64,000 nucleotides of DNA from Octopus vulgaris (taxonomy: Eukaryota): NCBI GenBank assembly GCA_951406725.2, contig OX597822.1, positions 28,520,001 to 28,584,000 on the forward strand. Reading direction: 5' to 3'. The position numbers and the translations under genes were made by a program. Positions within the stretch are counted from its first letter, which is position 1. Each line of letters opens with the position of its first letter. The notes under the pieces are model-generated. The model saw only the letters and a program-made list of their open reading frames with translations. It searched no databases and was not told the DNA's origin. This document shows positions 7,552 through 64,000 of this stretch, piece by piece.

Positions 7552-9594
7552 ATGGAAACTTTTATTCTGATGTGCGTGCTTTCTTTTCTATTGTTCTTAA
7601 ATATTGTATCACATGCCACAGACTTCAACAACTGCAGCCCAGGTTTGTGTTCTGATCCTCCTGCATATGGCGTACCTGAACGTTGTTCGTGCCGCCCGGA
7701 CTGCTACCTCTACAATGAATGCTGTTCTGACAAGATTAATAAAACCACTTCTGATCACAAACAACCCTATCCATCAATATATTACAGTTGTAGAAAGCTT
7801 AGTGATTCATATTATTATCAGTTTGATCGTTGTCCACCTAACCATGATATTACAGAGTATGTGAACAAGTGTGAAAATCCTGACTCAGATGACCAACTAC
7901 AAAATATACCCGCTTTTGGTAAAACTAGTAAAAGATTATTTAGGAACCTATATTGTTCTTTGTGTCATGGAGAGGAATTCATTCTTTGGAATCTTTTATA
8001 TGAATGCAACTTCATCCTTTCTCCAAGCATTGAAAATATATCAAATTATGTCAATGATGGAATATGTACACCAACTCTGAAGCTTCCTTCAGAAGATTTA
8101 GAGAAAAATTTGTATTCCTGTATTCCATATATTTCGAATTGTCCTCAAGATAACAATAGTACGGAACAAAGAATCGCATGTGAATCCGAGGCCATGGCAT
8201 TAATATATTTAGATGAGGAAAAATATTTCATACATACTAAATATAAAGATTATTACTTTTACAAAAACAGAGGTTGTGCCACATGCAACGGGGTTTTTGA
8301 AGTACCGTGTAAATTATTTTATTTTGAAATGCTCGCAAGTCATGTTATTCCACCATTAACGATCCTCTTCAATTATCATACAAAATCCATAACGATAACG
8401 GGTGAACACATCGAAACGGAACATACGCTTCTGCAGTTACCATCGTGTCCAAAACACGCAGTCTACGATATGAATACTAAGGAATGTCGACAAGTTATCT
8501 ACAATCCTCAACTAAACTGTACGATAACAAGATTAAATGAATCTGAGTATCATATTACAAGCGATGGTCTCCTGTATATAAATAAAACTCAACGTTTTCT
8601 AAACCAATCAGAATTCACTCGTGATTCTCAAGGTATAATAAGTATCTGTGTAAACAATGGTACCAATAATATATCAAATATCAATGGTGTATCAAAATAC
8701 TCCATTGTTGAGGGCTATATCACTTTAGTAGGACTAGTAATCTCTATTCCAGCTCTAGCAATCACTATTATAGTCTATCTCTGTATACCTGATCTCCGTA
8801 CCTTACCAGGTAAATTACTCATTAGTCTTTTATCAGCATTGTTTGCAGCTGAGCTTCTCTTTCTTATCTCATCACAAGCCACTACATCTACAGCTCTGTG
8901 TACATCTTTAGCTATAGTGATACATTATTCGTTTCTAGCGACTTTCTTCTGGATGAATGTCATGTCATTTGATGCGTGGTACACTTTTTCGGGATTCACA
9001 CAGCTTCGGAGTAAAGGAAAAGGTACCAAGAGACTTGTATTATATTCTTTGTATGGTTGGATCTGTCCACTTGTAATAGTAACAGTATCACTGATATTTG
9101 AGTATATTCCTGGAAATCATGGACTTTCCCCAGAATATGGAAATGGTATTTGCTGGATTAAAAATGGAAAAGGTCTACTGTGGCTCTTTGCAATCCCTGT
9201 AATGATTATTTTATGTCTTAATTTCGTAGCATTTATCCTCACCACTAGAGGGCTTTATATGGCCAGCAAATTATCTTCAAAATATTTATCGAAACATAGC
9301 AGAAATGAATTTTTTATTTGCCTAAAACTATATCTTGTTATGGGACTAACATGGACATTCGCATTTCTGTATACGTTTACAAGAATTGAAGAATTTTCTC
9401 TATTATTTTGTATTTTAAATTCTTTTGTTGGATTATTTATTTGTGTATCGTTTCTATCAACAAAAATTGTTCATCGCAGTATTCTTCGTAATTTGCACAA
9501 AATTGCAAGATTGCCTACAAAAGAATTTACTGATGTTTCTTCTGCTCCTAAGACAATATCAACGGATGTATCAGCTGAAAGGTCAGTTAACTAA
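7552..9594 (+). CDS. Family-B (secretin-class) Methuselah-like GPCR with SMB-like/Cys-rich ectodomain, 680 aa (receptor 1)
   Basis: Uninterrupted ORF; hydrophobic signal peptide; CSCRPDCYLYNECCSD (somatomedin-B-like); Cys-rich ectodomain; seven hydrophobic helices with LRTLPGK, HYSFLATFFWMNVMSFD, YG..ICWI and MGLTW motifs; no GPS motif seen. Confidence 0.93.
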   Translation: METFILMCVLSFLLFLNIVSHATDFNNCSPGLCSDPPAYGVPERCSCRPDCYLYNECCSDKINKTTSDHKQPYPSIYYSCRKLSDSYYYQFDRCPPNHDITEYVNKCENPDSDDQLQNIPAFGKTSKRLFRNLYCSLCHGEEFILWNLLYECNFILSPSIENISNYVNDGICTPTLKLPSEDLEKNLYSCIPYISNCPQDNNSTEQRIACESEAMALIYLDEEKYFIHTKYKDYYFYKNRGCATCNGVFEVPCKLFYFEMLASHVIPPLTILFNYHTKSITITGEHIETEHTLLQLPSCPKHAVYDMNTKECRQVIYNPQLNCTITRLNESEYHITSDGLLYINKTQRFLNQSEFTRDSQGIISICVNNGTNNISNINGVSKYSIVEGYITLVGLVISIPALAITIIVYLCIPDLRTLPGKLLISLLSALFAAELLFLISSQATTSTALCTSLAIVIHYSFLATFFWMNVMSFDAWYTFSGFTQLRSKGKGTKRLVLYSLYGWICPLVIVTVSLIFEYIPGNHGLSPEYGNGICWIKNGKGLLWLFAIPVMIILCLNFVAFILTTRGLYMASKLSSKYLSKHSRNEFFICLKLYLVMGLTWTFAFLYTFTRIEEFSLLFCILNSFVGLFICVSFLSTKIVHRSILRNLHKIARLPTKEFTDVSSAPKTISTDVSAERSVN

Positions 9595-35323: not shown

Positions 35324-36164
35324 GTACATACATACATACATACATACATACATACATACATACATACATACATACATACATACATACATACATACATACA
35401 TACGTACGTACGTACGTACATGCTAAGCATAAAGTTTGACTACATGGAAAATAACACGTGTATTCAATAGTGTCGCTAATAATGGCTGTGTAGAGTTGTT
35501 GCCACGCTCATCAGATATTAGTCGCCCTCACGTCATTTTCTGTTGAAGGAGAATGTGTACTCAATGAAAATCACAGATGTGAACGCATCATGAATGAATG
35601 TACTCAAATTGACGGAAGTGTGGAATTACTCCATTAGCTTTATGTCAATCTCACAAAGCGCATCGAACTCTAATTATGGAAACTATGTTGAAAATGTTAT
35701 TGATTATTGTAGTTGGATAGAATTATTGAAAAATATGCATTTTTGTTTATATATGTAGACTTTACGGCCACCCTGTTCATCCATAAATAAATAATTAATT
35801 AATTAAATCAATAAAAGCTTGATAGAACAAGCAAGAGAAACGTAACTCAGTACATGGATATGTCATCTTTTTATTTTTAATCGTGAGAATGTTACAAAAG
35901 TTACTCGAGGACCGAGAGATTCGTAGGTGGCACATAACACACTGACTTCAAATCAGAGGATTCATTAGATAAAAAGTGTATAATTCATGAAGCCTAATAT
36001 TGGTAGGTTACGTGAAAGCAGTCAATTTTCTAATAAACTGTTCGTTAAACAAAGTAGTTTTGAAAATAAATCATATAAAATACATGCAAAAAGTAACAAA
36101 TTCATAGATACACACAGGTACACACAACACGTACAGGTTGTTCGAACTAAGCTTCACCATTTTT

Positions 36165-36358: not shown

Positions 36359-36478
36359 TTATATTTATATTAGTTCTATTATTTGTATTTAGGCTCCAAC
36401 TAATGACTTCTCTAATTCTCTAAAAAATGTTTGCTGCAATAATTTGGGCAGAACTAATATTCTGCCGATTATGGGAAA

Positions 36479-36730
36479 ATGAATTATACGGGTTTGAGTG
36501 AACACATCTGGACTATAAAGCATGTGGACACTAAATATGACATTAAATGGTCAATTATTAGTAATGATTCACCATATACCGTTGGATATTCGAAATGTGA
36601 TCTCTGCTTAGAAGAATCATTCTATATCCTTACCTGTAATTTCAGATTATTTAATCCCAGAAACAAATTAGCAGCAAAATGCGCACATTTATTTAGAAAA
36701 GTATTTCAGTATTTTCCAAATAAGGAATCT
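36479..36730 (+). mobile_element. Penelope-like GIY-YIG C-terminal fragment (also at about 57385-57575)
   Basis: GLSEHIW..YDIKWSII..KCDLCLEE..FNPRNKLAAKCAH. Confidence 0.8.
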
Positions 36731-38738
36731 TATTTGGAAATCACGTAGATGAAAGGATACATAAGTTTATCTAGTTAACTTCTGTCGCAAATTTACTTAC
36801 GTTTTAACAAATCTGCATTAATCCTAACTATTATATATTTTTGGTAGGGAGGAAATAATGCAAAATATGGTTAGAATGTATATTTACTTCACACAACATA
36901 CATTGATTAGACTTACGTTAAAATTTCACATAATTTACCAAAATCTATTATAATTCAGAGTTGTAACTGAAATGGTATTGATTAATAGCTTTGGTTTCAT
37001 AATAAAGGTTTTGTAGTTTAGATAGTGATGAAAAAAGGGACATTTTATTCTTCATACCAGTTTATATATATTAGTTACATAACTGGAATACATATGGCTT
37101 CAAATGAAGATTAGAACAGCAACGCTATCTGGACATATACAACACGAGCCGAGACATCAGTATTAATATTGATTTGCTTTTGAGTGAGCTCAATTCTGAG
37201 AAGGGTACAGCATGAAATGTTATGTTTTCTCAACAACATTAGCAATATCAGTTCACGTTTACACAGAAACCCAAACCCGCAGTAACGTTACTTAAAATCT
37301 ACTGATAACGTTTATTGAGAAGCTCAAACTATATCGGTAAAATTCATGGAGATAGCTTTGAAATTTCGTTCAGCATTTGAAATAGCAGCAGGCAAGCTAT
37401 GTTAATCGTAATAAAATGTACTTTTGTACTCACGAAGAATTGCTTTTTATATTTTATTTATCTAGTTTAATATTACAGACATAGAGTACGTAAGTTAAAA
37501 TGCTCATCATTAATGACAGGATATTATGATTCATTTAATGCCGTTATTATACAAGGTATTAGACAACAAAAATATGATATATATTGTGGTTTGAATAAGA
37601 CTTACCGTCAGTGAATAAAAACCTTTATATGAAAGTAATATGACAATTAAAAGTAACGTTTAAAACGATTTGATTTTGCTCTTGTCGAAACAAATTATTT
37701 TCTCATGCAAAAAGTTTATATAAGTTACCAGAATACAAAAAGACTTGTTGAGAGTATTATAAAATTAACGAAATGTTATCAGTATTCTTCTTAACACCTT
37801 CTGATCTCTCCGTAGATAATGTGTTACGGAATGGAAGGTAAAAGCACTACAGCATCTTGATTGCTGGACAAATAAGAGCTGATTAGCAGAGAATTAGTTG
37901 GATAATTAAAAGCGATAAAAATAATAATTAATAGAGTTGGGATACAAATGTGATACACGGGTAATAGTCTCTTATCACACGCACCAGTCTCTCTATAGAT
38001 CCAGTTACATGTGACGCAATAAATGTTTTTCAGAACGTTTCCCAAAACGTTTTTCATTTCATAGTTATTCAATAAGTGTGAGGAAGAGACTATATAAGAT
38101 GGGAATAGAACGAGATTATATAAGTTAGGAAACATATCTCCATAGACATTGCTAGATTAGCAAGTTATGCATGACCATGGGGAGATATGAGTGAGCTCAA
38201 ACTTCATAAACAACCCGCATATTCAAAAATGTTCGGTCAACAGAAATTAAATGGGATACAAGGATAAAAAAAAAGGGATACAATAAAATTACTAACTATA
38301 TAGGGTTTGGAACAAAAAGTGAGTCCGTTCAACAGCTCATGTGGACATAAAAAGTTTTAATATATTGAGTACAGGTGACACTGGCCAAAAATAAACGAAC
38401 AAGTTCCTGAAAGAGATAGGCACGTACCCTTCACACTTGCAAGGCGTTTATCTTATACGAATTCAAATAGAATCTAGAAAACATAACTTTTCTTTTTTGT
38501 TTTTTCATTTCTTTTTTTCCGAATCGGCATTTTAGGAATTTCAGTTCAGAATGTTGTTAATTGTTGAACTTGGTAACCTCAGCTGATTCATAGTCTCGAA
38601 GATCTATAGTCAAAGGTATTCTAGTAAGAACCATCATGTCATTTATTCAGATTTAATATATAATTTATTATCCATTATTTCCATCTTCATTCCACTGACG
38701 ATATTGAGTAACCCACATTGGTTAGCTTGACGATACAC

Positions 38739-40652
38739 CTACGGATTTATATTCGTTGATGTTGTTTTATGAGCGAAATTAACATCAACAGATTCTTTTG
38801 TGGATGTTTTTGTAATTTTTTGCAGATTCTGAAAAATACTGCGTCGAGCAATACTTGTTGATAGAAACGATAAACATATAAGTAATCCAACGAATGAGTT
38901 TAAAATACAAAATAATAGAGAAAATTCTTCAATTCTTGTAAACGTATACAGAAATGCGAATGTCCATGTTAGCCCCATGATAAAGAATAGTTTTACACAA
39001 ATGATAAACTCCAATTTCTTATGTTTTGATAAATATTTCGAAGAGAGTTTGCGTGCCAAATAGAGCCCTCTAGCGGTGAGGGTAAACGCTATGATATTAA
39101 GACATAAAATAAACATTACAGGGATTAAAAAAAACCATAGCAGACTTTTTCCATTTTTAATCCAGCAAATATCTTTTCCATACTCTGGGGAAAGTCCATG
39201 ATTTCCAGGAATATACTCAAATACCAGTGATACTGTTACTATTACAAGTGGACAGATCCAAGCATACAAGGAACAAAATACAAATCTCTTGGTATGTTTT
39301 CCTTTACTTCGAAGTTGTGTGAGTCCTGAGAAAGTGTGACAGGCATCAAATTACACTGTAGATTTAGTGATTTGTGATGAGATAAGAAATAGAAGCTCAG
39401 CTACAAACAGTGCTGACAAAAGACTAATGAGTAATTTACCTGGTAAGGTACGGAGATCAGGTATACAGAGATAGACTATAATGGTGATTGCTAGAGCTGG
39501 AATAGAGATTACGAGTCCCACTAATGTGATATAGTCTCAGCTACGGAATATTTTGATATACCATTGATATTTGATATATTATTGGTACCATTGTTTACAC
39601 AGATACTTATTATACCTTGAGAATCACGAGTGAATTCTGATTGGTTCAGCAAACGTTCGGTATTATTTAAGTAAAGAAGATCATCACTAGTAATGTAATA
39701 CTCAGATTCATTTAATCTTGTTGTCGTACAGTTTAGTGGAGGATGGTAGATAACTTGTCGACATTGATCGGTATTGATATCGTAGACAGCGTATCTTTGG
39801 ACAGGAGGGAGACTGCACATGTCTATTTTCCGTTTGGCCTAATTCATTTCTTACCTTTACAGTATTGGTATAATAATCAAAAAGTATTGTTAGAGGAACA
39901 TATCCTACATTTCCACTTATTTCAAGATAATACACTTTACAAATATCACTGGAAAACCCGTTACATTTGGCACAGTCATTATTTTTGTAAAACACCCTAT
40001 TTACATTATCTACATATATTAACGCCATTGGCTCAGACTCACATGCCACCGTTTGTTCTTTATTACTATCTTGTGGACAACTCGAAATAAATGGAATACA
40101 AGAATACAAATATTTCTTCAAATCTTCTGGAGGTTTCACATCTGGCCAACATCTTTCTTCTTGAGATAATTTGATTATATTTTCAAAGCTTACATCAGAG
40201 TGAGTCAGCATTATATAAAAGATTCCAAAGAATAAATTCTTCTCCATGACACAGAGCACAATACAGGTTTCTATAGAGTATTTTACTTGTTTTACCAAAA
40301 GCGGGTATGTTTTGTAGTTGATCATCTGAGTCAGGATTTTCGCAGTTGTTCACATACTCCGTAACATCATGGTTAGGCGGACAACGGTCAAACTGATAAT
40401 AAGTATAATAATCATCACAAACTTGTACAGCTGTAATATAGTGATGGATAGTATGTGATTAGAAGTGCTCTTATTAGCCATGTCAGAACAACATTCCTTG
40501 TAGAGGTAACAGTCCGGACGACACGAACAGCGTTCCGTGTGCGCGGGAGGATCTGAGCACAAAGCTGGGCTACAGTTGTTGAAGTATTGTGCATATGTTA
40601 CAATATTTGAGAACAATAAACGACAAACTACAACCAACAAAACTGTTTCCAT
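38739..40652 (-). pseudogene. Disabled Methuselah-like GPCR paralog (receptor 3)
   Basis: Full-length homology split across frames; indels near 40450, 40420, 40205, 39795 and 39535; 69-nt deletion of TM3 with TAA at 39351-39353. Confidence 0.88.
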
Positions 40653-40960
40653 TTTCAAAGACATAATGAATAATGCATGAATTGACCTTCCAAGTCCCGG
40701 TGATACTTTGATAATTTACTTCACTGCCGTAAATTTAAAGGTATTACTATGTACTTTGAAATTTAGCAATGTTTCCAAGAGATATAATGATCAATACCTT
40801 CACAAAATTTTCATTCCGAAGCGGAACAATGAAATTAATTTCGGTAGATTTAGATTCTTTGATTTTATTGCTATTAAATGTTGAATGTTCGCGACTCGGC
40901 TACTTAGCGTCACATATATGCATGTATGAATATATATAGATCCGAAGATAGTTGAGGCAT

Positions 40961-41305
40961 CTGCAAAAGAACAAATATTTCATTAAACATACTATTATTG
41001 TAAACATTGATACATATTAAAGCACACACGCATATACACAGATAAACACACACGCATAATATATATATATACAACTTATAAACAAGGGCAAAAGAAAAAA
41101 TTCCAATGCCTAATATGCCGAAAATAGACTTAATCGTCAATAACCATATAATTTATCACTATAAGCACGCATCTAGAAAGCAAGCCGATAGAAATTTCTA
41201 ATAAATTTCGTTATTATCGAATCGGCCCCGATTTCTGAGTTAATTCATTTAGAATTTTCTCGTAATCAGCGATAAATACGATAAGAAAATTAATGAGATA
41301 CTTAC
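40961..41305 (-). other. Candidate 5'UTR intron of receptor 3
   Basis: CAA|GTAAGT ... tttgttcttttgcag|ATG. Confidence 0.6.
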
Positions 41306-41446
41306 TTGTACCCACGGAAGAAGTAAACACTAAGTCCTGTGTACACTTAAGTACCCCAAATATATTCAAAATAGAAATTCAACAGCATTCTTCGAGACAC
41401 GTGTGATTCACTTCGGGACTCATTTTCAGTCCGATCACATTTTTTT

Positions 41447-41471
41447 TTATTTATTATTATTATTATTATTG

Positions 41472-41543
<72 letters not shown>
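41447..41543. repeat. (TTA)n microsatellite (paralogous tract at about 62485-62567)
   Basis: Direct reading. Confidence 0.95.
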
Positions 41544-41544
<1 letters not shown>

Positions 41545-43416
41545 TAGTGTTGTTGTTATACATACATACATACATACAAGCATACGTAATGAAAATAATA
41601 ATAAGTGGATGTCAACACATGAACAAAATAAGAATAAACAAAAACAACAATAAAAGCAAATTACACGAACGTATAAAAACAGAAGATACAAATATTACAG
41701 GCATCCCTCCACCACACACACACACTAACTAAACATAGACGCATATAGAGATATAAGCGAGTGCAAATGAAGACATACAATAGAAATACAAAATGGCTGA
41801 CGGTTAGTAAGGAGAGACACAAATAAGAAAGAAGAAAACAAAGGACCACTGATGCGGTCACAGGAGTGTGACGAAAGAACTCTGGCTGAAATTAGATTAA
41901 GATTAATGTACAAAATAAATATCACTGAAGCAAAATAACACCAAATATATAGTGCGTGTGTTTTTATTGGCTAAACTGGCAAAATGACCATTCCGAAATA
42001 TAACAATATCTGTTTTAACACACGGCTTCACGTAAAAAATCTTGCACAACAGATATATAAACGTACAATACTACGGCTGAAACAAAATAAAAGCAGAGAG
42101 GCGCAACGAAGTAGAAGGATAAATGTTGTCAGTGTCTTACCGCTGTGCATAGGAAAACAGTGATATCATTACAAATAATTAATTGCTTAGTTTTTGCATG
42201 ATAAAGAATATTACTCTTACCAATATCCAAATTTCGCTTCGGTGCTCAGACGTCGCAACAACAGTCGTCGTTACCTCCTAAAGTTAGATGTGAATTGAAA
42301 GCAGGATGGGCACAATGTCATTGAAAGTGATAGGAAAAGAAGAGAGAGAGAGTGAATGAGAACGACAGAGATATCGACAATAAAGTGGAATCAAATGACA
42401 AGTAGCAAAGTGGTCAATATGTAGCTGCCGTTCTCCGGAAGCAATCTAAGAACAATAATACAGCTGAGTCAGAGAGAGAAACAAATGAAAGAATACAGTA
42501 ACATTATCACTAAGAGAGAGTTCACAAGGAGGATATAATAAGACGGATATTCATTAAAACTAGGATGGGACAAATGTCGTTAAAAGAGAGAGGGGTTGAC
42601 GGGCATATCTCCAAGAGAGTGTTAACGAAGGAGAGGTACGAAGACTTGCTAGTATGTGGCAGATCTGTTGAGTAGTAAGCAAAGAACAATGATACGGTGG
42701 TGAGAGAAGGAGAAAAAAGGAAGAGAAAACAGTGTGATCCATATCGAGGATAAATTTGTTAATTTACATGCAATCGTCTATAAACAAACAATGATTGAGA
42801 ATTGTGATGTAGCAAAGATTTCCGCCTACGGCAAATTCTATATTTCTACTGAGACCAGGATGGGTCGTATGGCATTAGCAAGGAGGTGGATGGAGAGGAA
42901 GAGAAATGACAGAGATATCCCCAACAGAGTGGCAACGAATGAGGGGACCGAAGGTCTTCAGTATGTGGCAGCAGTATTGAAGAAGAAAATAAAGAATAAT
43001 AAGGAAAAGAAAAGAAAAAGGGAGAAAACAGTAACATTAACACTAAGGAAGAGATGACAAGGGACAAATTTACAATACCTAGGAAATATTTCAGGAAAAG
43101 TTCCTATTTTTACGGGGAACGTATGTATTAATTTGCATGCAGAACAATATTTTTCTTACCGGCAGGAGAGTTCAGAAGTCGGCAGGAGAGTTCTGTCTAC
43201 AGATGTAGTTAGATTGTTAATGAAAAGAGGAGGGGCAGAATATCATCAAGGGAGTAAGGCCAAGAGAATAAGAGAATGTGTGAACAACGAAGATATTACA
43301 AATAGACGAGCAACTTCTATTGGGATGTCGCAGTTGTGTTGAGGAAAAAAAGACAGAGATAGACAGAGAAAGAAAAGGAGAGAAAGCAGTAATATTATCA
43401 GTGAGAAGGGAGTGAC

Positions 43417-49950: not shown

Positions 49951-51647
49951 AGTATGGTATATAAATTTTTCATTTGGTTACAAAATATTAGGATTTCAAA
50001 ATTTAGGTATGATCAGAATGTTATTATTTAAAATACTTAAACATACGGGTAGCACAATGTATACAAGATTTCCCTAGTTCGGAACGGTTATTCGATAAGT
50101 TTTTATTATTCCTATGTTTAAATCAGCCGAAACGTTGTGGTAACAACAAACATGATGACACATATCTGTCCAGTGTAAATAATGTAAACACAAGTTTTCT
50201 TCCTTTCTTAAATTGCCTGGAACCCTATTTTGTATATTTTCGATCCAAAAATGCACATCGGCTTCTCCCTATTGAAATTTCTCAAGAAAATTAACAAAGC
50301 TTCTAGACCAAACTACATATTCACAATTTTAGCAGGTTTTTTTCATTATTTTTTGTTTACGTATGAATAAATTACTGGGAATTCAAACTTACATCATATT
50401 TCAAAATATAATCACAAATTCTCATAACAAGCAATATGTTTTAAAATGCTTTAAAATTGATTCTTCTTTCATTGTTTATTCTTCCACTACCGTTTTCAAA
50501 TCTTAGATCACAGGCAGAAGTTATCGAAAATGGAACGGATTTTCACAAAAGTCCATGCATTGAAGATTAACTTGATAAATCTTATTACATATTGATATTA
50601 ATCTATCCGTTAAGGCAACGAGCTGGCAGAACCATTAGCACACAAGGCAAAATACTTCGCAGCATTTCATCCGTCTTTACATTCACAGTTCAAATTCCGT
50701 CACGACCCCTCCTCGGAAATTGTTACCTTTTTGCCAAAATTTGGAATCAATATTACTCTATTGGTTCTTTCATATTTCCTTTCACTTAGCTACCGATTGC
50801 TCCCAATATCGACCATTTTGCATTTGCATTTGACTGTCTTCTTCTGTGTGTATACCAGTGACCGTATGTACGATCATATATGCATGAAAAATACATATAT
50901 GTGTGTGTATGAGTGTGTGAGTGTATTCGTAAAACTTTATGCATACACATCCATACATATTCACTTATAGACCTAAACATCTATACCAACACATACACGC
51001 ACACACACACACACACCAGCACATACATACATACAAAGATACAGGGCAAGCATGAAGTCTATACACAAGGGAAACATGTCTTACTCATTAATATCGCTAA
51101 TAATGATTGTGTAGAGCGGGTTTCGTCGCTCATCAGATATTAGTTCGTTTCACGTCTTTTTCTGACGTATGATGGAGAAGGTGTACTCAGTGAAAATCAC
51201 AGATGAAAATCATGTTGAAAATGTTATTCTTTAATGTAGTTCAATAATATTATTGAATAATATTATTTTCGCTCATGTATGTAGACTTAACGTTCACACT
51301 TTACATGCATACATGAATAAATAAATAAATAAATAAATAAATTTCTGATTGAACAAACAAGAGAAACATAATTCAGTATATGAATATATCATCTTTTTTA
51401 TTTTTAATCGCAAGAATGTTACAAAAGTTACTCAAAGGCCGAGAGCTTCGTAGGCGGCACATAAAACACTGACTTCAAATCAGAGGACTCGTTACATATA
51501 AAGAGAATATTTCGTGAAGCCTAATATTGGTAGGTCACGTGCATATAATGTAATTGTTACAATAATACTTATTAGTATTTACCCTATGCTTGCTAAAAGC
51601 AGAATATCATCTGCTCCGTCTATGGAATTACGTGTCACTCTATGGGT

Positions 51648-52308: not shown

Positions 52309-55300
52309 CTTTTTTCTTCTTCTTTCAAATTTGCTTCCATTTCTTGCCGAGTGTCTTCCCGACTCCTAGGGCAAAGAAACTCATAGTATACATTGGTAGG
52401 CCATTAAACTAAACTCACTAGTTCGTTCATTTCTTTTTTTTTAAGTTAAATTAAAATACATGGGTAGTAATAGTTATCACATCGACAATGCTCTTCTCAA
52501 TACGTGTGATGTACCAGTTAAGACAATCTTTTGCACTACTTGCAAGGATGGTAAGCCAGGGATCATTCTCATATAATTTTCGGTTCCCTTCTTGATCATT
52601 CCTAGTGCTCCTACGATCACTGGTATTGTAACCGCCTTGAGATACCACATTTTCTCAATTTCAATGAGTAGGTCTTTATATTTTCTGAGCTTGTCAAACT
52701 CTTTCGCTGAGATACTATCATCACAGGGGATGCTCATGTCGATCAATAAGCAAACTTTATTGTTTTGGTCTTTCACAACAATATCTGGTTTATTGGCCTT
52801 GATGGTTCGGTCTGTATGTACTGGAAAGTCCCACAGAATCGTTACATTTTCTCCTTCAGTTACAGCCTCAGGGTGGTGATTGTACCACTTGTCGGCAGTT
52901 CTGACATTGTAATGCCGACTTATTAGCCAGTGTAGATATTGGCCAACTCTGTCATGTCTTAATTTATACTCCTCTGGGGCTAAGACTTTACATCCAGAGA
53001 TTAGGTGGTCCACTGTTTCAATCATGTCGTTGCAGAATCGGCATTTTGGGTTTGTTCAAGTTTTCATCACGTTGGCCTGGTAGTTCCGGGTTATTAGGCT
53101 TTGATCTTGAGCAGCCAGGATGAAACCCTCACTCTCTGCTTTTAGCCCAGAGCTCCGTAGCCACTGATGGGTTTGCTTCTGGTCAACATCAGCTTGTTTG
53201 CTGCGGGCCACATATTTGCCGTGCAGAGGTTTCTCCTCCCACCTATCAGCCAATTGCTCGTGCGCTTTTTTCGTTGCCATTATTTTCACCTTCTTTGCAA
53301 CAATAGTTGCCATACATCCCTCGGGTTGTTCAGTTTCTGTATCCTGCACGAGATCAATAGCAAATGTTTTGCTTTCCTTTATGATAGAATGAAGCTTCTT
53401 TCGTCTCTCGTGATTTTCCAAGAGCTTTAGCATCCAGTCATTCGTTATTTCGAGATATTTGGCCAGTCCAATTATGGTTGTTTTGTAAGCTTGTTCAAAT
53501 TGGATCAGGCCTCGACCTCCTAGGGCTCTGGGAAGGTAAAGGCGATCTACGTCTGCCTTTGGGTGGTGCATCCTATTACAACTCAGCAGCTTGCGTATTT
53601 TCCTATCTATATTCTTTACCTCACTCATATTCCAGTTAAACACATTGTAGCTATAAGTAACAACTGGAATTGCTAAGGAATTTATAGCTAACACCTTGTT
53701 ACGTGCATTTAGTTCAGATTTCAGGACTGCACGAACTCTCCTATAACATTCCTTCCTGATCTTCTCTTTCATGCTTGCATTCTGAATACCAGAGCCTTTA
53801 TTTATCCCTAAATATTTGTATGTTTGTTCTTGCTCAAGCTCTCTTATGACTGTGTCAACATCTAACGCGACTGCATTTGTGGTCTTCCCTTTCCCTTTCT
53901 GGAAAGTGGCCTTGGCACACTTCTTAAGTCCAAACTCAATCCCGATGTCATCGCTGAATGTTTTCACAGTGCGCAATAGGCCTTCAAGTTCATTATTGTC
54001 TTTACCATAGAGTTTTAAGTCATCCATATAAAATAGATGGCTTATTTTTTTATTGGCAATTTTATACCCATACTCTGTTCTGTTTAATTCACTTGTAAGG
54101 GGTATTAGGGCTATGCAGAATATTAAAGGTGAAAGTGAGTCACCTTGAAAAATTACACAGTTGATGTTTATATTTTCTGAGGCAAGTACTCCATTAGAGT
54201 GGTATAATTGGAGATTCGTATTCCACAACGACATATTGTGCTTCAGAAAGTTTGAAATCACAGGGGAAATTTTGAAGATGTCCAGCGATCTCAAGATCCA
54301 TGGATGCGGTATACTGTCGAAGGCCTTTTTATAGTCAATCCATGCGGAGCGAGATTTCTGCGCTTGTTGTGACAGTTCTCCAGGATCATACGATTAATAA
54401 GCAGTTGATCTTTGCATCCGTATGAGCCTCGGCGGCACCCTTTTTATTCAATGGGGAAAATATCGTTCTTCTCCATGAATGCATATGTTTCCTCCGCCAG
54501 GATAGATGTTAGGATTTTATGCGTGGTGGATAGACAGGTTATAGGCCGATAGTTTTTTGGAAGGTTGGTTTCGTTATTCTATGGGAGTAGGTAAGTAATA
54601 CCACTTGCTAACCAATCAGGTGTTTTCTTTGGGTCTCTCATAATTCCATTGAGCAGCTGAACTAGCTTACCGTGTGCACATGGGAGCGATGCGATCCAGA
54701 AATTCGGCACTCTATCTTTACCGGGGAATTTCCAATTATGGGCCTTGATGAGTGCCTTTCTTAGGTCTGCTATTGTGATGTCTTCCCCATGCTTGTTGTC
54801 GTAAATTTTGGTAGGATCCTTCAGTTTGTAAAAACCAGTCTGCATTTATGTTGTACGTCTTCTTGTCACTCCAAATCCATTTCAAAAGTTTTGAACTTCT
54901 TCCATGGGAGGGGGGTCTTTAACGGTTACTTTCTCCTTCCCTATTTCTCTGTAGAATTTTTTGGCATTGGATGTGAACAGCTTATTTTGCTTGTAAAACT
55001 TGTTTCTCTTCTCAAATCTTCGTATTCTTTGGGCTTTTGCTTGGACTTTTTGTTTCAGCGTTTCTTTTATTGATATCAGTTCTTCTCTTGGTGAGGATCC
55101 AAATTTTCTCTGCATCTTTCTTCCTGTTCTGGATCTTACATCATTTCCACATATTAGTTCATTTAATATTGATATTTCCCCTCTCATAAATTCAATCTCT
55201 TTTTCAATTTTACTTCTCCTGGTTTGGTTTTCTTTGTTTTTTCGGGGGCATACAGCTGGTTTCAATTGCCCTAGCAGAAGTGTAAATAATTTCATTTAAC

Positions 55301-56165
55301 TCAGGAAAATCAGGTTTTAATTCTTGTATTATTTCAGTTGCCAATTTGGATTTGTTTTTTATTTTGGTTTGTATTTGAGAGTTTATGAAGTAGTTCTCTA
55401 TCATTCATACTTGTATGTCTTACAACTTCAAGCGTATTCAGGATTTTCTGCCTCATTTCTGCCATAGACTCTCTATGTTCTTCAGCAAATGCGAAATCTT
55501 CAGTTACTGTTGTTTTATCATTTTCCTGGCTATCTTCAACAGGTACAATAGAATTTCTTGTATCTTCAGGCCTTTGCGTACTTTGGTCAGATGGCAGTCT
55601 TTCAATTAAGCCTCGTGGCGGGCTATACTGTTCATCTGATTCTTCATTTCCTTTGTGTCTTATATTTATGTCATTTTCCGTTGCGTGCTTGATCGCGCTT
55701 ATTTCAGTGTTTGTGAGTCTGTTATTTCTAAGGATATCCCTCATCACATTTGCCAATTTGTTCTCGTCCAAATAGGGCCTACTGTCTTGATTCCTTGTTC
55801 TCCATATACTGTAAGAGTTTGCGGTGTGTCTCTCTTGAGATGGCCTACCTAATGCATAGTAATAAGCGTATATTACTTCTTTATACTCTTCTCGGGTCCA
55901 TTTGTTCCGCTTACATTTTCTTTCTGTGGTGGTTGTGGTGGTGAACTTAGAGGGCTCGAGTTGGAGGATTTCCCGTTCAAGTGACCATCCATGTCCGTAT
56001 TCGGAGAAGAGTTTGTGTCAGTTTCGATCCCAGGCTGGCTCTTCCCTGGGGGACGCGCTTCCAGATTAACCATAGGACAAGTGATTTGGTTAGTTTCCAA
56101 AAACATTTTGGTGCGACGATAATGTTATCATTTTTGAGCTTTGATTGGCACGTGGGGAAACGGCC
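52309..56165 (-). mobile_element. Near full-length R4/Dong-clade non-LTR retrotransposon (RT, CCHC, restriction-like endonuclease), inactivated
   Basis: NYRPITCL, WIDYKKAFDSIPH, IFQGDSLSPL, YMDDLKLY, CRFC..ETVDHLISGC, RHD, NKPDIV..ID..K..KY; the ORF is broken into several frames; 3' end abuts (TAA)n. Confidence 0.9.
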
Positions 56166-57212: not shown

Positions 57213-57257
<45 letters not shown>

Positions 57258-59651
57258 TATATCAGTTCTATTATATGTGGTTAATAGGCTCCAACTATTG
57301 AATACACTAATTTTTTTTAAACTTGTGTGATGCAATAATTTGGGCTAAACAAATATTCTGCCGATTAGGGTTTAAAAAAAGTAAATTACACGGCTTTGAG
57401 TGGGCTCACTTGGACTTTAAATGATATGGACACTAAACATACCGTTGGGTATTCGAAACGTGATCTCTGCTTGGAAGAATCATTCCATATCCTTACTTGT
57501 ACTTTCAGATTATTTAATCCCAGAAACAAATTAGCAGTAAAATGCGCACAGTTATTTAGAAAAGTTTTCATTATTTCCAAATAAGATTCCTTATTTACAA
57601 ATCACGTAGATGAAAGTACACATAAGTTAACCCAGTTAGCTTATATTGCAAATTTACTTACGTTTTAATAAATTTTCACTAATCCTAACTATTATTTATT
57701 TTTTGGAAGGGGAGAAATAATACAAAATATGGTTAGAATGAATATTTACTTCACACAACATATATTGATTAAGCTTACGTTAACATCTCAGATTGTTTAG
57801 CAAAATCTATTGTAATTCATAGAGCAGTAAATGAAACGGTATTGATTAATTGCTTTGATTTCATAATATTAGCGCAAAGGTTTTGTAATTTAGATAATTA
57901 TAAAAAAAGGGACACTTTTTCCTTCATGCAAATTCATATATATTAGTTACATAAATGGAATAAATGAAGATTGGAACAGCAAGGCTAACTGGAAATATAC
58001 AACACGAGCCGAGCTTTCAGAATTAATATTGACTGGACTCGATTCAGAGAACGGATAAGGCAAGAAATGTTACGCTTTCCCAACAACATTAGCAATATCA
58101 GTTCACGTTTACACAGAAACCTGCAGTAATGTTACTTAAAATCTACTGATAACGTTTACTGAGAAGCTCAAACTATATCGGTAAATTTCATGGAAGATAA
58201 CTTTCAAATTTCGTTCAGCATTTGAAATAGCAGCAGGCAAGCTATGTTAATAGAAAGAATGACTATAACAGAGAGGCTTTTCAGTCTTCATAAACCTATA
58301 GAGGAACATGGATATTCAACACGTAATAAAAAACAAATTTTGTATTTATGAAGTGCTTTTTATTATATTCTCTTTATATAATTTAATATTACAGATATAG
58401 AGTACGTAAGTTAAAATGCTCATCATTAATGACAGGATATTATGATTCATTTAATCCCGTTGTTTTACTATGTATTAGACCATAAGAATAACAGCTAAGG
58501 AGTCGACATCGTCTGATTATTATATGGTATACATATCGTGGTTTGGATATTGTCATTGATTTAACACATTTATATGGAAGTAATACCACAATAAGAAATA
58601 GCGTTTACAATACACTGATTTTGCTCATGGCGAAACAATTATTTTCTTATGCAAAACGACCAAAAGACTTGTTGAAAATATTATAAAACTGGTGCGATAT
58701 TGTCAGCATTCTTTTTAACAACATCAGATCTCTCCGTAGATAACGTTTAACGGACAGAAAGGGAAACGCCCAGCAACATTTTGCTTGCTGGACAAATAAG
58801 AGCTGATTATTAGAGAATTAATTGGATAACTGAAAGCGACGAATAATAATATTTTAATAGAGTTGGCATAGAAATGCGATACATGAGTGGTAGACTATTA
58901 TCACACACACTAGTATCTCTACAAATCCCGTTACATGTGACGTAATAAATGTTTTTCAAAGCGTTTTCCGAAACGTACATCAGGATTATTCCAAATGTGT
59001 GAGGAAGAGATTATATAATATAGGAAGTCAACGAGACTATTTAAAACCATTTAAAATCGTTTGAGCGAACTAAAAGACAGGGAGAGAGACATGAGTGAGC
59101 TCAAACTTCATAAAACCCACATATTCGTAAAATGTTAGGTCAACAGAAAATAAATGGGATACAAAAAAGAATAGAAAAAAAGGATACAATAAAATTACTA
59201 ACTATATGGGATTTTCAGCAAAAAGTGAGTCCGTTCAACAGCTCAGGTGGACATGAAAATTTTAATATATTGAAGAACAGAAGAAATTGCCAAAAATAAA
59301 AGGGCAAGTTACTGAAAGAAATAGGCACGTACCCTTCACACTTGCAAGGCGTTTATCTTATACGAATTCAAATAGAATCTAGAAAACATAACTTTTCTTT
59401 TTTCGTTTTTTTCATTTCTTTTTTCCGAATCGGCATTTTTCCGAATCGGAATTTCAGTTCAGAGTGTTGTTAATTGTTGAACTTGGTAACCTCAGCTGAT
59501 TCATAGTCTCGAAGATCTATAGTCAAAGGTATTCTAGTAACAGCCATCACGTCATTTATTCAGATTTAATATATAATTTATTATCCATTATTTCCATCTT
59601 CATTCCACTGACGATATTGAGTAACCCACATTGGTTAGCTTGACTGCACAA

Positions 59652-61643
59652 CTAAGGAGTTATATTCGTTGATGTTGTTTTATGAGCGAAATTAACATCA
59701 ACAGATTCTTTTGCGGATGTTTTTGTAATTTTTTGCAGATTCTGAAAAATACTACGTCGAGCAATACTTGTTGATAGAAACGATAAACATATAAGTAATC
59801 CAACGAATGAGTTTAAAATACAAAATAATAGAGAAAATTCTTCAATTCTTGTAAACGTATACAGAAATGCGAATGTCCATGTTAGCCCCATGATAAAGAA
59901 TAGTTTTACGCAAATGATAAACTCCAATTTCTTATGTTTTGATAAATATTTCGAAGAGAGTTTGCGTGCCAAATACAGCCCTCTAGCGGTGAGGGTAAAC
60001 GCTATGATATTAAGACATAAAATAAACATTACAGGGATTAAATAAAACCATAGCAGACTTTTTCCATTTTTAATCCAGCAAATATCTTTTCCATACTCTG
60101 GGGAAAGTCCATGATTTCCAGGAATATACTCAAATACCAGTGATACTGTTACTATTACAAGTGGACAGATCCAAGCATACAAGGAACAAAATACAAATCT
60201 CTTGGTATGTTTTCCTTTACTTCGAAGTTGTGTTAGTCCCGAGAAAGTGTACCAAGCATCAAATGACATGACATTCATCCAGAAGAAAGTCGCTAGAAAC
60301 GAATAATGCATTACTACAGCTAAAGATTTACACAGCACTGTAGATGTAGTAACTTGTGATGAGATAAGAAAGAGAAGCTCAGCTGCAAACAGTGCTGATA
60401 AAAGACTAATGAGCAATTTACCTGGTAAGGTACGGAGATCAGGTATACAGAGATAGACTATAATGGTGATTGCTAGAGCTGGAATAGAGATTACGAGTCC
60501 CACTAATGTGATATAGCTCTCAGCTACGGAATATTTTGATATACCATTGATATTTGATATATTATTGGTACCATTGTTTACACAGATACTTATTATACCC
60601 TGAGAATCACGAGTGAATTCTGATTGGTTCAGCAAACGTTGGGTATTATTTAAGTAGAGAAGATCATCATTAGTGACGTAATACTCAGATTCATTTAATT
60701 TTGTTGTCGTACAGTTTAGTGCAGGATGGTAGATGACTTGTCGACATTTCTTAACTCTCAAATCGTAGATAGCGTATTTTGGACAGGAGGGAGACTGCAC
60801 ATGTCTATTTTCCGTTTGGCCTAATTCATTTCTTACCTTTACAGTATTGGTATAATAATCAAAAAGTATTGTTAGAGGAAAAGGTTCTACTCTGTAAGCT
60901 ATTTCACGATAATTCACTTTACAAATATCACTGGAAAACCCGTTGCATATAGCACAACCTTTGTTTTTGTAAACTTTAAGAAATTTATATATGCCATTTA
61001 CAAGGTAGTCTGTGCTAGACTCCATATATATCAATGCCATTGGCTCAGACTCACATGCCATTATTTGTTCCTTATTATTGTTATCTTGAGGACAATTCGA
61101 AATATATGGTGTACAACTATGCAAATATTTGATCAAATATGATTGAAGCTCTACTGTTGGCCTACATCTATCCTTGAGATAATTTGATATATTTTCAAAG
61201 GTTACATTAGAGATTCTGTCGCAGTTATATAAAAGATTGCAGAGAATGAATTCCTCTCCATGACACAGAGCACAATACAGGTTCCTGTAGAGTCTTTTAC
61301 TTGTTTTACCAAAAGCAGGAATGATCTGCAGTTGATCCTCTGAGTCCGGATATTCACAGTTGTTAACATACTCAATAACATCATGGTTATCTGGACAACG
61401 GTCAAACTGATAAGCATAATAATCACCAGCTTTTCGGCAACTCATAGTTGGGTAGTATGTGATAGAAGAGGTCTTATGAATAATGTCAGAACAGCATCCA
61501 TTGTAGAGGTAGCAGTCTGGTTGACACGAACAACGTTCCGATGCGCCATCTGAACACAAAGCTGGGCTACAATTGTTGAAGTATCCTGCATGTGTTATAA
61601 CACTTGAGAACAAAAGAATGCAAACTAAAAACAATGTTTCCAT
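59652..61643 (-). CDS. Family-B Methuselah-like GPCR, 663 aa (receptor 4)
   Basis: Intact paralog; ATG at 61643 (METLFL) aligns with the starts of the other copies; same domain order. Confidence 0.93.
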   Translation of the reverse strand: METLFLVCILLFSSVITHAGYFNNCSPALCSDGASERCSCQPDCYLYNGCCSDIIHKTSSITYYPTMSCRKAGDYYAYQFDRCPDNHDVIEYVNNCEYPDSEDQLQIIPAFGKTSKRLYRNLYCALCHGEEFILCNLLYNCDRISNVTFENISNYLKDRCRPTVELQSYLIKYLHSCTPYISNCPQDNNNKEQIMACESEPMALIYMESSTDYLVNGIYKFLKVYKNKGCAICNGFSSDICKVNYREIAYRVEPFPLTILFDYYTNTVKVRNELGQTENRHVQSPSCPKYAIYDLRVKKCRQVIYHPALNCTTTKLNESEYYVTNDDLLYLNNTQRLLNQSEFTRDSQGIISICVNNGTNNISNINGISKYSVAESYITLVGLVISIPALAITIIVYLCIPDLRTLPGKLLISLLSALFAAELLFLISSQVTTSTVLCKSLAVVMHYSFLATFFWMNVMSFDAWYTFSGLTQLRSKGKHTKRFVFCSLYAWICPLVIVTVSLVFEYIPGNHGLSPEYGKDICWIKNGKSLLWFYLIPVMFILCLNIIAFTLTARGLYLARKLSSKYLSKHKKLEFIICVKLFFIMGLTWTFAFLYTFTRIEEFSLLFCILNSFVGLLICLSFLSTSIARRSIFQNLQKITKTSAKESVDVNFAHKTTSTNITP

Positions 61644-61952
61644 TTTAAAAGATATAATTAATGATGCATGAATTAACCTTTCAAATCCTAATAGTTCTTT
61701 GATATTTTGCTTCACTGCTGTAATTTTACAAGATCTGACAGGTATTTTTAAAATTTTGCAATGTTTCCTGATGATACAATGACTATTACCTTAACAATAT
61801 TTTCATTCCGAAGCGGGGTAATGAAATTAATTTCGGTAGATTTAGATTCTTGGATTTTATTGGTATTAAATGTTGAATGTTCGCGACTCGGCTACTTAGC
61901 GTCACATATATGCATGTATGAATATATATAGATCCGAAGATAATTGAGGCAT

Positions 61953-62050
61953 CTGCAAAAGAACAAATATTTCATTAAACATACTATTATTGTAAACATT
62001 GATACATATTCAAGAACACACGCATATACACAGATAAACACGCACGCATG

Positions 62051-62109
<59 letters not shown>

Positions 62110-62325
62110 ACTTAAAAACAAGGGCAAAGGAAAAAATTCTAATGCCAAATATGCCGAAAATAACCATATAATTTATCACTATAAGCACGCGTCTTGAAAG
62201 CAAGCCGATAGAAATTTCTAAAAAATTTCCTTATTATCGAATCGGCCCCGATTTCTGGGTTAATTCATTTAGAATTTTCTCGTCATCAGCGATAAATACG
62301 ATAAGAAAATTAATGAGATACTTAC
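61953..62325 (-). other. Candidate 5'UTR intron of receptor 4
   Basis: CAA|GTAAGT ... tttgttcttttgcag|ATG, as in receptor 3. Confidence 0.6.
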
Positions 62326-62490
62326 TTGTACCCACGGAAGAAGTAAACACTAAGTCCTGTCTGCACTTAAGTACCCCAAATATATTCAAAATAGAAATTC
62401 AACAGCATTCTTCGAGACACGTGTGATTCACTTCGGGACTCTCTCACTCTATGAGAATTTTCAGTCCGATCACATATTTTTTTTTATTTA

Positions 62491-62567
<77 letters not shown>

Positions 62568-64000
62568 TAGTGTTGTTGTTATACATACATACATACAAGC
62601 ATACGTAATGAAAATAATAATAAGTGGATGTAAACACATGAACAACATACGAATAAACAAAAACAACAATAAAAGCAAATTACACGAACATATATAAACA
62701 GAAGATACAAATATTACAGGCATCCCTCCACCACACACACACTAACTAAACATAGACGCACATAGAGATATAAGCGTGCGCAAATGAAGATATACAATAG
62801 AAATACAAAATGGCTGACGGTTAGTAAGGAGAGACACAAATAAGAAAGAAGAAAACAAAGGACCACTGATGCAGTCACAGGAGTGTGACGAAAGAACTCT
62901 GGCTGAAATTAGATTAAGATTAATGTCCAAAATAAATATCACTGAAGCAAAATAACACCAAATATATAGTGCGTGTGTTTTTATTGGCTAAAACTGGCAA
63001 AATGACCATTCCGAAATATAACAATATCTGTTTTAACACACGATTTCACATAAATAATCTTGCACAACAAATATATAAACGTACAATAATACGGCTGAAA
63101 CAAAATAAAAGCAGAGAGGCGCAACGAAGTAGAAGGATAAATGTTGTCAGTGTCTTACCGCTGTGCAGAGGAAAACAGTGATATCATTACACAGAAAGCA
63201 TTGCTTAAATTTTGCATGGTAAAGAATATTGCTCTTACCAATATCCAAACTTGGTTTCGGTGCTCGGACGTCGCAACAACAGTCGCCGTTACCTCCTATA
63301 GCTAGATGTGAATTGAAAGCAGGATGGGCACAATGTCATTGAAAGTGATAGGAAAAGAAGACAGAGAGAGTGAATGAGAACGACAGAGATATCGACAATA
63401 AAGTGGAATCAAATGACAAGTAGCAAAGTGGTCAATATGTAGCTGCCGTTTTCCGGAAGCAATCTAAGAACAATAATACGGCTGAGTCAGAGAGAGAAAC
63501 AAAAGAAAGAATACAGTAACATTATCACTAAGAGAGAGTTCACAAGGAGGACATATACAGTGTATAGTAAATATTTCGAAATACAGCGATATCTTTATGG
63601 AGAATACATTGGTTAATTTGCATGGAAGCTTATGCTGCTGTTCCTGATATCCAGAGTTTGTCTAAGAACTGAGATTGTGGAAGTATTTGCACCTGCAGCT
63701 GTTAATTGATGTTTAATGAAACCAGAATGGGTAAAATGTCATTAAGAGAGAGAAGGATAAAGATGTTACCGATATAATAAGACGGATTTTCATTAAAACT
63801 AGGATGGGACAAATGTCGTTAAAAGAGAGAGGGGTAGACGAACATATCTCCAAGAGAGTGTTAACGAAGGAGAGGTACGAAGGCTTGCTGGTATGTGGCA
63901 GATCTGTTGAGTAGTAAACAAAGAACAATGAGAGAAGGAGAAAAAAGGAAGAGAAAACAGTGTGATACATATCGTGGATAAATTCGTTAATTTACATGCA

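Follow-up and report, generated by a model that had tools for sequence, protein, structure and literature searches.

The receptor cluster and its family

The window, i.e., the whole 64-kb stretch of AT-rich animal DNA that was analyzed, contains four paralogous single-ORF receptor genes, here designated R1 to R4, and one retroelement:

7552-9594, forward strand: R1, intact paralog, ortholog of O. sinensis LOC118765180
22623-24719, reverse strand: R2, intact paralog, 99.3% identical to an O. sinensis Mth2-like protein
38739-40652, reverse strand: R3, broken single-ORF 7tm_2 receptor gene, a mosaic of paralog lineages A and B
52477-56017, reverse strand: decayed LINE-type retroelement with an RVT_1 ORF at 53056-54393
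59652-61643, reverse strand: R4, intact 663-aa receptor of lineage B, 99% identical to O. sinensis LOC115216262

A Pfam scan of R1, R2, and R4 identified the 7tm_2 domain (PF00002) with E-values of 1.6e-31, 6.1e-30, and 8e-29, respectively, and no other family at E≤0.1. By this domain, the genes of the cluster are class B (secretin-like) GPCRs; R3 lacks most of TM3. Among the relatives, the 28 best of 32 were Octopus proteins, many of them named Mth-like, and the closest named matches are Mth-like or Mth2 according to NCBI. One named O. vulgaris model agrees with two stretches of the window at 141/141 and 55/55 positions. R1 has the opposite orientation to R2-R4 and is homologous to them in its coding region only.

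An octopus-specific tandem expansion of Methuselah-like receptors under purifying selection is described as group 4 in the accessible text of Ritschard et al. 2019 (PMC6408891), and the cluster probably belongs to it. Like the present genes, group 4 comprises tandem Octopus 7tm_2 receptors under purifying selection, with an omega of 0.306 compared with 0.2-0.65 for most pairs here. The same text links expression in the arm nerve cord, sucker, and skin to orphan octopus receptors; this accessible portion has a single mention of gene conversion, raised in general terms as possible in other groups, and does not report mosaic genes. A literature search that mostly left subscription papers aside listed no work on mosaic genes in the octopus Mth-like family, nor any paper in which DUF8401 is named.

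Outside arthropods, the Mth/Mthl family is portrayed in the accessible text of PMC4768249 in terms that fit the genes seen here: it is defined by the 7TM region, lacks the arthropod Mth ectodomain, and in some members carries somatomedin-B domains. The absence of a Pfam match to the arthropod ectodomain (PF06652, 10 cysteines, compared with 25 here) at E≤0.1 in R1, R2, and R4 was therefore expected. Unlike in that description, Pfam Somatomedin_B was not matched at E≤0.1, and the relatives carry DUF8401 (PF28443), which is precomputed on several of them, including LOC115216263. The corresponding Atlas matches (0.78-0.81) lie under the Atlas line of 0.9, and the Pfam scan of R1, R2, and R4 did not return PF28443. 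R4 contains what we take to be a somatomedin-B-like cysteine motif. No Pfam match to the GPS/GAIN domains of adhesion GPCRs was obtained for R1, R2, and R4, and typical GPS sequence patterns were also absent; the best PDB matches to the 7TM are adhesion GPCRs. For all 55 PDB matches, the best stretch lies in or beside the 7TM.

Stepwise divergence between R3 and R4

The regions 36.3-42.8 kb and 57.2-64 kb were aligned and segmented by likelihood, with divergence expressed as mismatches per ungapped column. The resulting profile is not flat. It steps from 3.6% (68/1898) at 40828-42772 to 19.7% (178/903) at 39899-40827 and back to 3.6% (54/1482) at 38416-39898, followed by 14.3% at 38182-38415 and, beyond a 58-base unalignable patch, 15.4% (255/1659) at 36362-38123. 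A lighter penalty adds a diverged 49-base patch at 39739-39787 and a similar 186-base patch at 37231-37416; the segment 38416-39738 holds 41 mismatches in 1323 columns.

The first-pass annotation had described 39880-40800, the ectodomain, as more diverged than the non-coding DNA around it. With 173/895 mismatches (19.3%), this interval indeed stands apart from the upstream DNA at 40831-42772 (68/1895, 3.6%; Fisher p=4e-40) and from TM4-7 with the tail (11/602, 1.8%; p=6e-29), and the proximal 3' non-coding DNA is likewise near identical between the two genes (14/309, 4.5%), as the annotation had said. The peptides that it quoted for the differing N-terminal half are present in the sequence. 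The wider comparison holds for the two nearest blocks only: the distal 3' non-coding flank at 36400-38410 is about as diverged (313/1888, 16.6%; no difference from the ectodomain distinguishable, p=0.078), and the diverged block takes in about 175 bases 5' of the ATG, where divergence reaches 24.1% (40/166). The similar 3' block also covers more than TM4-7 and the proximal 3'UTR; it begins at 39898, within the ectodomain, and spans the stalk (3/140 mismatches), TM1-3 (9/200), and TM4-7. The divergence contrast is thus real, and the block edges ignore coding status.

Farther downstream, homology between the R3 and R4 flanks picks up again at 35330-36014 and 50947-51541 (72-83%). The LINE-type element at 52477-56017 lies between R3 and R4, where their downstream flanks lose homology. 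A stretch of 221 bases in the R4 upstream block (63550-63770) is missing from that of R3 at 42531. Across the stalk and TM1 (39450-39700 and counterparts), R2, R3, and R4 are 2-4% apart, compared with 10-30% for R2 elsewhere.

R3 combines two paralog lineages

Lineage B is represented in O. sinensis by LOC115216262, LOC115216263, and an Mth-like gene, and R4 belongs to it; lineage A is represented there by LOC118765232, a partial model. The R3 unit falls into the following blocks:

40828-42772, reverse strand: upstream block, near identical to 61820-64000 of R4, which reaches the window end
39953-40827, reverse strand: E1, lineage A by tree and AU test; about 175 bases of 5' flank, the signal peptide, and the N-terminal ectodomain
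39798-39952, reverse strand: lineage B island within the ectodomain, 15/15 diagnostic residues of type B
39680-39793, reverse strand: E2, second lineage A patch, 34/36 residues shared with the A gene and 26/36 with R4
38416-39679, reverse strand: lineage B stalk, 7TM, tail, and proximal 3' non-coding DNA, near identical to the R4 unit
36362-38415, no strand assigned: distal 3' flank, anciently homologous to 57254-59320, with 14-17% divergence

For tree building, R3 was read through with X at the breaks. The ectodomain tree (19 rows) grouped R3 with LOC118765232 at a support of 100/99, and the 7TM tree (18 rows, LOC118765232 being too short to include) placed it within the B clade, also at 100/99. 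Forcing R3 together with lineage B in E1 was rejected (p-AU 0.00096). Diagnostic residues follow the same division, with A/B/other counts of 34/9/5 in E1, 0/15/0 in the island, 6/1/1 in E2, 0/7/0 in the stalk, and 0/4/0 in the TM region. Ectodomain and 7TM are therefore discordant for R3, and of the explanations offered in the first-pass annotation, the trees and diagnostic residues support derivation of the ectodomain from another paralog lineage.

Residue identities agree with this assignment. E1 shares 143/164 residues with LOC118765232 and 153/215 with R4; the island shares 44/50 with LOC115216263, 42/50 with R4, and 15/49 with the A gene, its part at 39899-39952 being a patch that is variable among B paralogs. 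The block 38416-39679 shares 109/110 residues with LOC115216263 and 199/203 with LOC115216262, and in its 3'UTR and upstream DNA, R3 agrees with the unit of the B gene R4. R3 is thus an A-B-A-B mosaic of two long-diverged paralog lineages, and silent sites show the same pattern.

From the island onward, 31 sites separate LOC115216263 from LOC115216262, the ortholog of R4; R3 follows the former at 16, the latter at 14, and neither at one. R4 was accordingly rejected as the only source of the similar blocks. A search for further lineage A proteins yielded, among eight matches, only LOC118765232 itself and part of one O. vulgaris model. A 50% representative search returned 114 matches, and one of the five examined (P0044) contained an A-like island fragment.

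Breaks in R3 and contigs of other sequencing runs

Seven frame changes occur in R3, near 40452, 40420, 40205, 40175, 40158, 39795, and 39534, the last being the loss of one base; in addition, 69 bases of TM3 are missing at 39354, followed by a stop. Five of these eight breaks lie inside the diverged block. The in-frame pieces contain no nonsense codon besides the one at the TM3 loss. In the B segments, a single residue of 363 is absent from all four B genes, yet three indels are present, and by this private-residue count no neutral decay was detected there. The O. sinensis lineage A model (P0017) is itself out of frame at residues 84-106, near the ectodomain patch of the second R3 break, and ends early, after TM4.

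Contigs of four public runs (X1, X2, X4, and X8) were placed on 38150-41040 at 90% likeness. The results given here concern the entries that were listed, which for pieces number 32 of 786, for substitutions 40 of 207, for indels 12 of 37, and for loose ends 24 of 98; holes in contig cover at 39799-39895 (X2, X8) and 39508-39604 (X1) were kept out of the evidence. Every part of R3 exists in other animals, and the listed pieces are free of its internal junctions and breaks. The R3-type ectodomain is found in X1 and X4 contigs with 12/525, 8/383, and 2/182 other letters (about 2%); one X1 piece exceeds the window there by 26 letters, a difference that by frame arithmetic would give an unbroken frame, and X1 contains at least three A-type variants across 40130-40211. 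The R3 distal flank occurs in all four runs with 0-1 differences, and an R3-type 3' end and proximal upstream distinct from R4 is matched with no other letters in 315 (X2), 173 (X4), and 159 (X1). In one X4 piece, the R3 distal flank runs on into the shared 3' block for 30 letters without a difference, one letter below the 31-letter threshold.

None of the 32 of 786 pieces listed for the four runs contains an A-to-B junction inside the gene, and the 12 of 37 indel rows listed include none of the R3 lesions. At 39953, A-type contigs in X1, X2, and X8 run on with other sequence, and at the X1 loose end this sequence encodes the residues that come next in the A gene itself. The R3 letters at 39899-39925 were not matched in X1 or X4; across 39796-39955, these two runs show 13 other letters, and all 12 that are listed are those of R4. 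In X2, a piece with an A ectodomain (92% alike) continues into the shared proximal upstream and departs from the window sequence at 41006. An upstream class stopping at the same position is also present in X1 and X4; it carries 9 other letters across a stretch in which 3 positions separate R3 from R4. In these two runs, the contig depth ratio is 4.4-4.6 at the shared 3' end, compared with 3.4 over the A ectodomain and 1.8 over the R4-type island; depth is not copy number, and the ratios give a weak hint that A genes also carry the shared 3' end.

Exchange between tandem paralogs or a blended assembly

We lean, if cautiously, toward gene conversion or unequal crossing-over between tandem Methuselah-like copies as the origin of the R3 patchwork. 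Strand exchange would begin and end in stretches alike in all copies, such as the proximal upstream, the CxxCNG and SCPK motifs, and the stalk; bounded in this way, it would therefore leave variable ectodomains between shared flanks. The 20% gap would then represent old A-versus-B divergence built up under purifying selection and not new change. The abrupt 3.6%/19.7%/3.6% steps, which include silent and non-coding sites, support exchange, as do the discordant trees, the diagnostic residues, the R3-type ectodomain in X1 and X4, and the X4 piece that reaches from the distal flank into the shared 3' block.

Evidence apart from R3 comes from R1 and R2, where a tract at 8422-8496 and 23876-23802 is near identical amid 20-30% divergence and contains 23 shared polymorphic sites in a run (permutation p=0.0002). 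The two tracts agree at 50/52 positions within the window and 49/52 within O. sinensis, compared with 45/52 and 42/52 to the O. bimaculoides orthologs; the O. bimaculoides R1-R2 pair itself agrees at 45/52, so the margin is modest. Judged from these alignments, the tract looks like a real conversion tract.

Two directions of exchange are conceivable: an A cassette may have entered a B locus, or an A locus may have been overwritten by B on both sides. The former is favored by the residues in common with LOC115216263 and by the X2 upstream link, the latter by a distal flank as diverged as the ectodomain and by the depth ratios. The annotation had set cassette replacement beside conversion that spares the ectodomain; the lineage A origin fits the data, and the two processes are indistinguishable here.

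Several observations count against exchange and bring in the main alternative, namely that R3 is a product of assembly. In that case, reads of A and B genes, from collapsed tandem copies or two alleles, would have been piled together, the consensus would switch between them with frameshifts where they disagree, and the animal would carry intact A and B genes and no chimera. We regard this as a serious possibility, albeit one to which we do not lean. The X2 A ectodomain is joined to a different upstream past 41006, A-type contigs stay A past 39953, and the junctions are absent among the listed pieces; contigs drop rare variants and few rows are listed, so this absence is no proof. Several R3 breaks mix the letters of two paralogs within about 10 bases, a pattern that conversion does not readily make and that a mixed-read consensus would give. 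R3 has the exact 5-base gap of R4 at 40452 without R4's compensating 1-base gap, and an X4 contig end runs through this position without a gap. Near 40175, where an extra base is found, relatives have either letter and R3 has both (T in LOC118765232 and S in R4, the codon being deduced from the proteins). The base lost at 39534 falls in a codon at which LOC115216263 (I) and R4 (S) would differ, again judging from the proteins, and at 39795 the extra base coincides with a change between A and B. Letters of R4 also appear in R3 at 40405-40407, 40145, and 40152-40153, where A-type contigs differ.

The scarcity of private residues points the same way. Given three indels, neutral decay of the B segments would be expected to yield 9-23 replacements under assumed indel-to-substitution ratios of 0.10-0.25, and the probability of observing at most one is no higher than 0.001; the converse estimate, the chance of three indels, is less telling (P 0.0003-0.20). 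The lack of nonsense codons outside the TM3 loss and the at least three A-type variants in X1 are also consistent with blending, and even the best DNA run contains no more than 0.55 of the sampled words. No RNA data set was listed for the stretch, which carries no information on expression. Long-read assemblies often contain collapsed genes and frameshift errors (PMC9668749); a blending signature is not described in the accessible text of that paper.

Other features resist this explanation. R1, R2, and R4 have open frames and differ very little from their O. sinensis orthologs (99% identity for R2 and R4), so the base quality nearby is good. The 3' end and proximal upstream of R3 are real sequence distinct from R4, being matched exactly in X1, X2, and X4. 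Base-calling errors are typically not as large as the 69-base loss in TM3, which is atypical for them. Exchange between tandem copies thus remains our preferred account, and even in a genuine mosaic, consensus errors probably explain some of the small R3 frameshifts.

A broader version of exchange would treat the array as modular, with a uniform promoter and 7TM half, and with whole cysteine-rich ectodomains and short hypervariable patches swapped between copies. Ectodomain-backbone combinations would then segregate in the Octopus vulgaris complex, R3 being one of them and possibly intact in the animal. We consider this extension unlikely.

Selection on the ectodomain

The first-pass annotation had also proposed positive selection. 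A scenario in which R3 and R4 stem from one recent duplication and selection pushed their ectodomains apart is, in our view, highly improbable. Substitution rates were estimated on 173 ectodomain codons, leaving out nine stretches near breaks or of poor alignment. For R3 and R4, dS was 0.378 and dN 0.160, i.e., a dN/dS of 0.42 (bootstrap CI 0.26-0.67). In the 7TM and tail (257 codons), dS was 0.060, so that dS itself rises into the ectodomain and dN/dS stays below 1; dN is also greater there than in the 7TM (0.014), as selection would have it. A six-fold rise in dS is beyond what selection at the amino-acid level can produce, and positive selection drops out as a cause. In the ectodomain, 12/42 four-fold sites differ, compared with 7/116 in the 7TM, and both the silent sites and the 5' non-coding DNA, the latter at 24%, share in the divergence of the block. 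The R3-R4 ectodomain dS lies within the range of the other five pairs (0.28-0.58), and the R4 ectodomain is identical to that of its O. sinensis ortholog LOC115216262 at 233/235 residues.

A local signal compatible with selection is found at 39899-39960, where about 12 replacement differences and one silent difference fall in 21 codons; the excess is not significant (Fisher p=0.26). This patch overlaps a cluster in which the three O. sinensis B paralogs vary, residues 241-256 holding 11 such sites in 15 (permutation p=0.0004); it offers a lead and does not account for the block. Short ectodomain patches in which the O. sinensis B paralogs vary correspond to R4 residues 207-222, 241-256, and 271-285 (about 60790-61025) and are candidate ligand-contact loops.

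Less probable still is R3 as a dead recent copy of R4 whose ectodomain decayed faster: five of the eight breaks do sit in the diverged block, but this account is rejected, since decay cannot yield 34 residues matching a separate lineage A, the ectodomain dN/dS is well under 1, and the R3 end branch in the E1 tree is just 0.031.

Relation to known systems

Partial gene conversion is known from mammalian TLR1/TLR6, according to the accessible text of PMC2077338. As in R3, these are tandem paralogs whose membrane-proximal and transmembrane part is homogenized and whose N-terminal ectodomain is lineage-specific. In the mammalian case, both genes are intact and the pattern recurs in nine species, in contrast to R3, which is broken, shares its upstream DNA too, has a B island in the ectodomain, and has junctions known from the assembly only. 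R3 would add one more case to an established process; the copy concerned is broken and possibly in part an artefact.

If the mosaic is real, it implies ectodomain exchange among orphan octopus receptors, and whole-gene trees and dN/dS tests would be confounded for the octopus Mth-like family. If it is an assembly blend, the locus is collapsed, with a wrong receptor count and wrong pseudogene calls. Either way, the pattern does not reflect adaptive change of the ectodomain, and other receptor clusters already provide examples of the process.

The O. vulgaris model P0030 joins an A-type receptor piece, a second LINE copy (91% alike), the R4 upstream DNA, and the LINE copy of the window, a layout that hints at an A-type gene past 64000 and a mis-built gene model.
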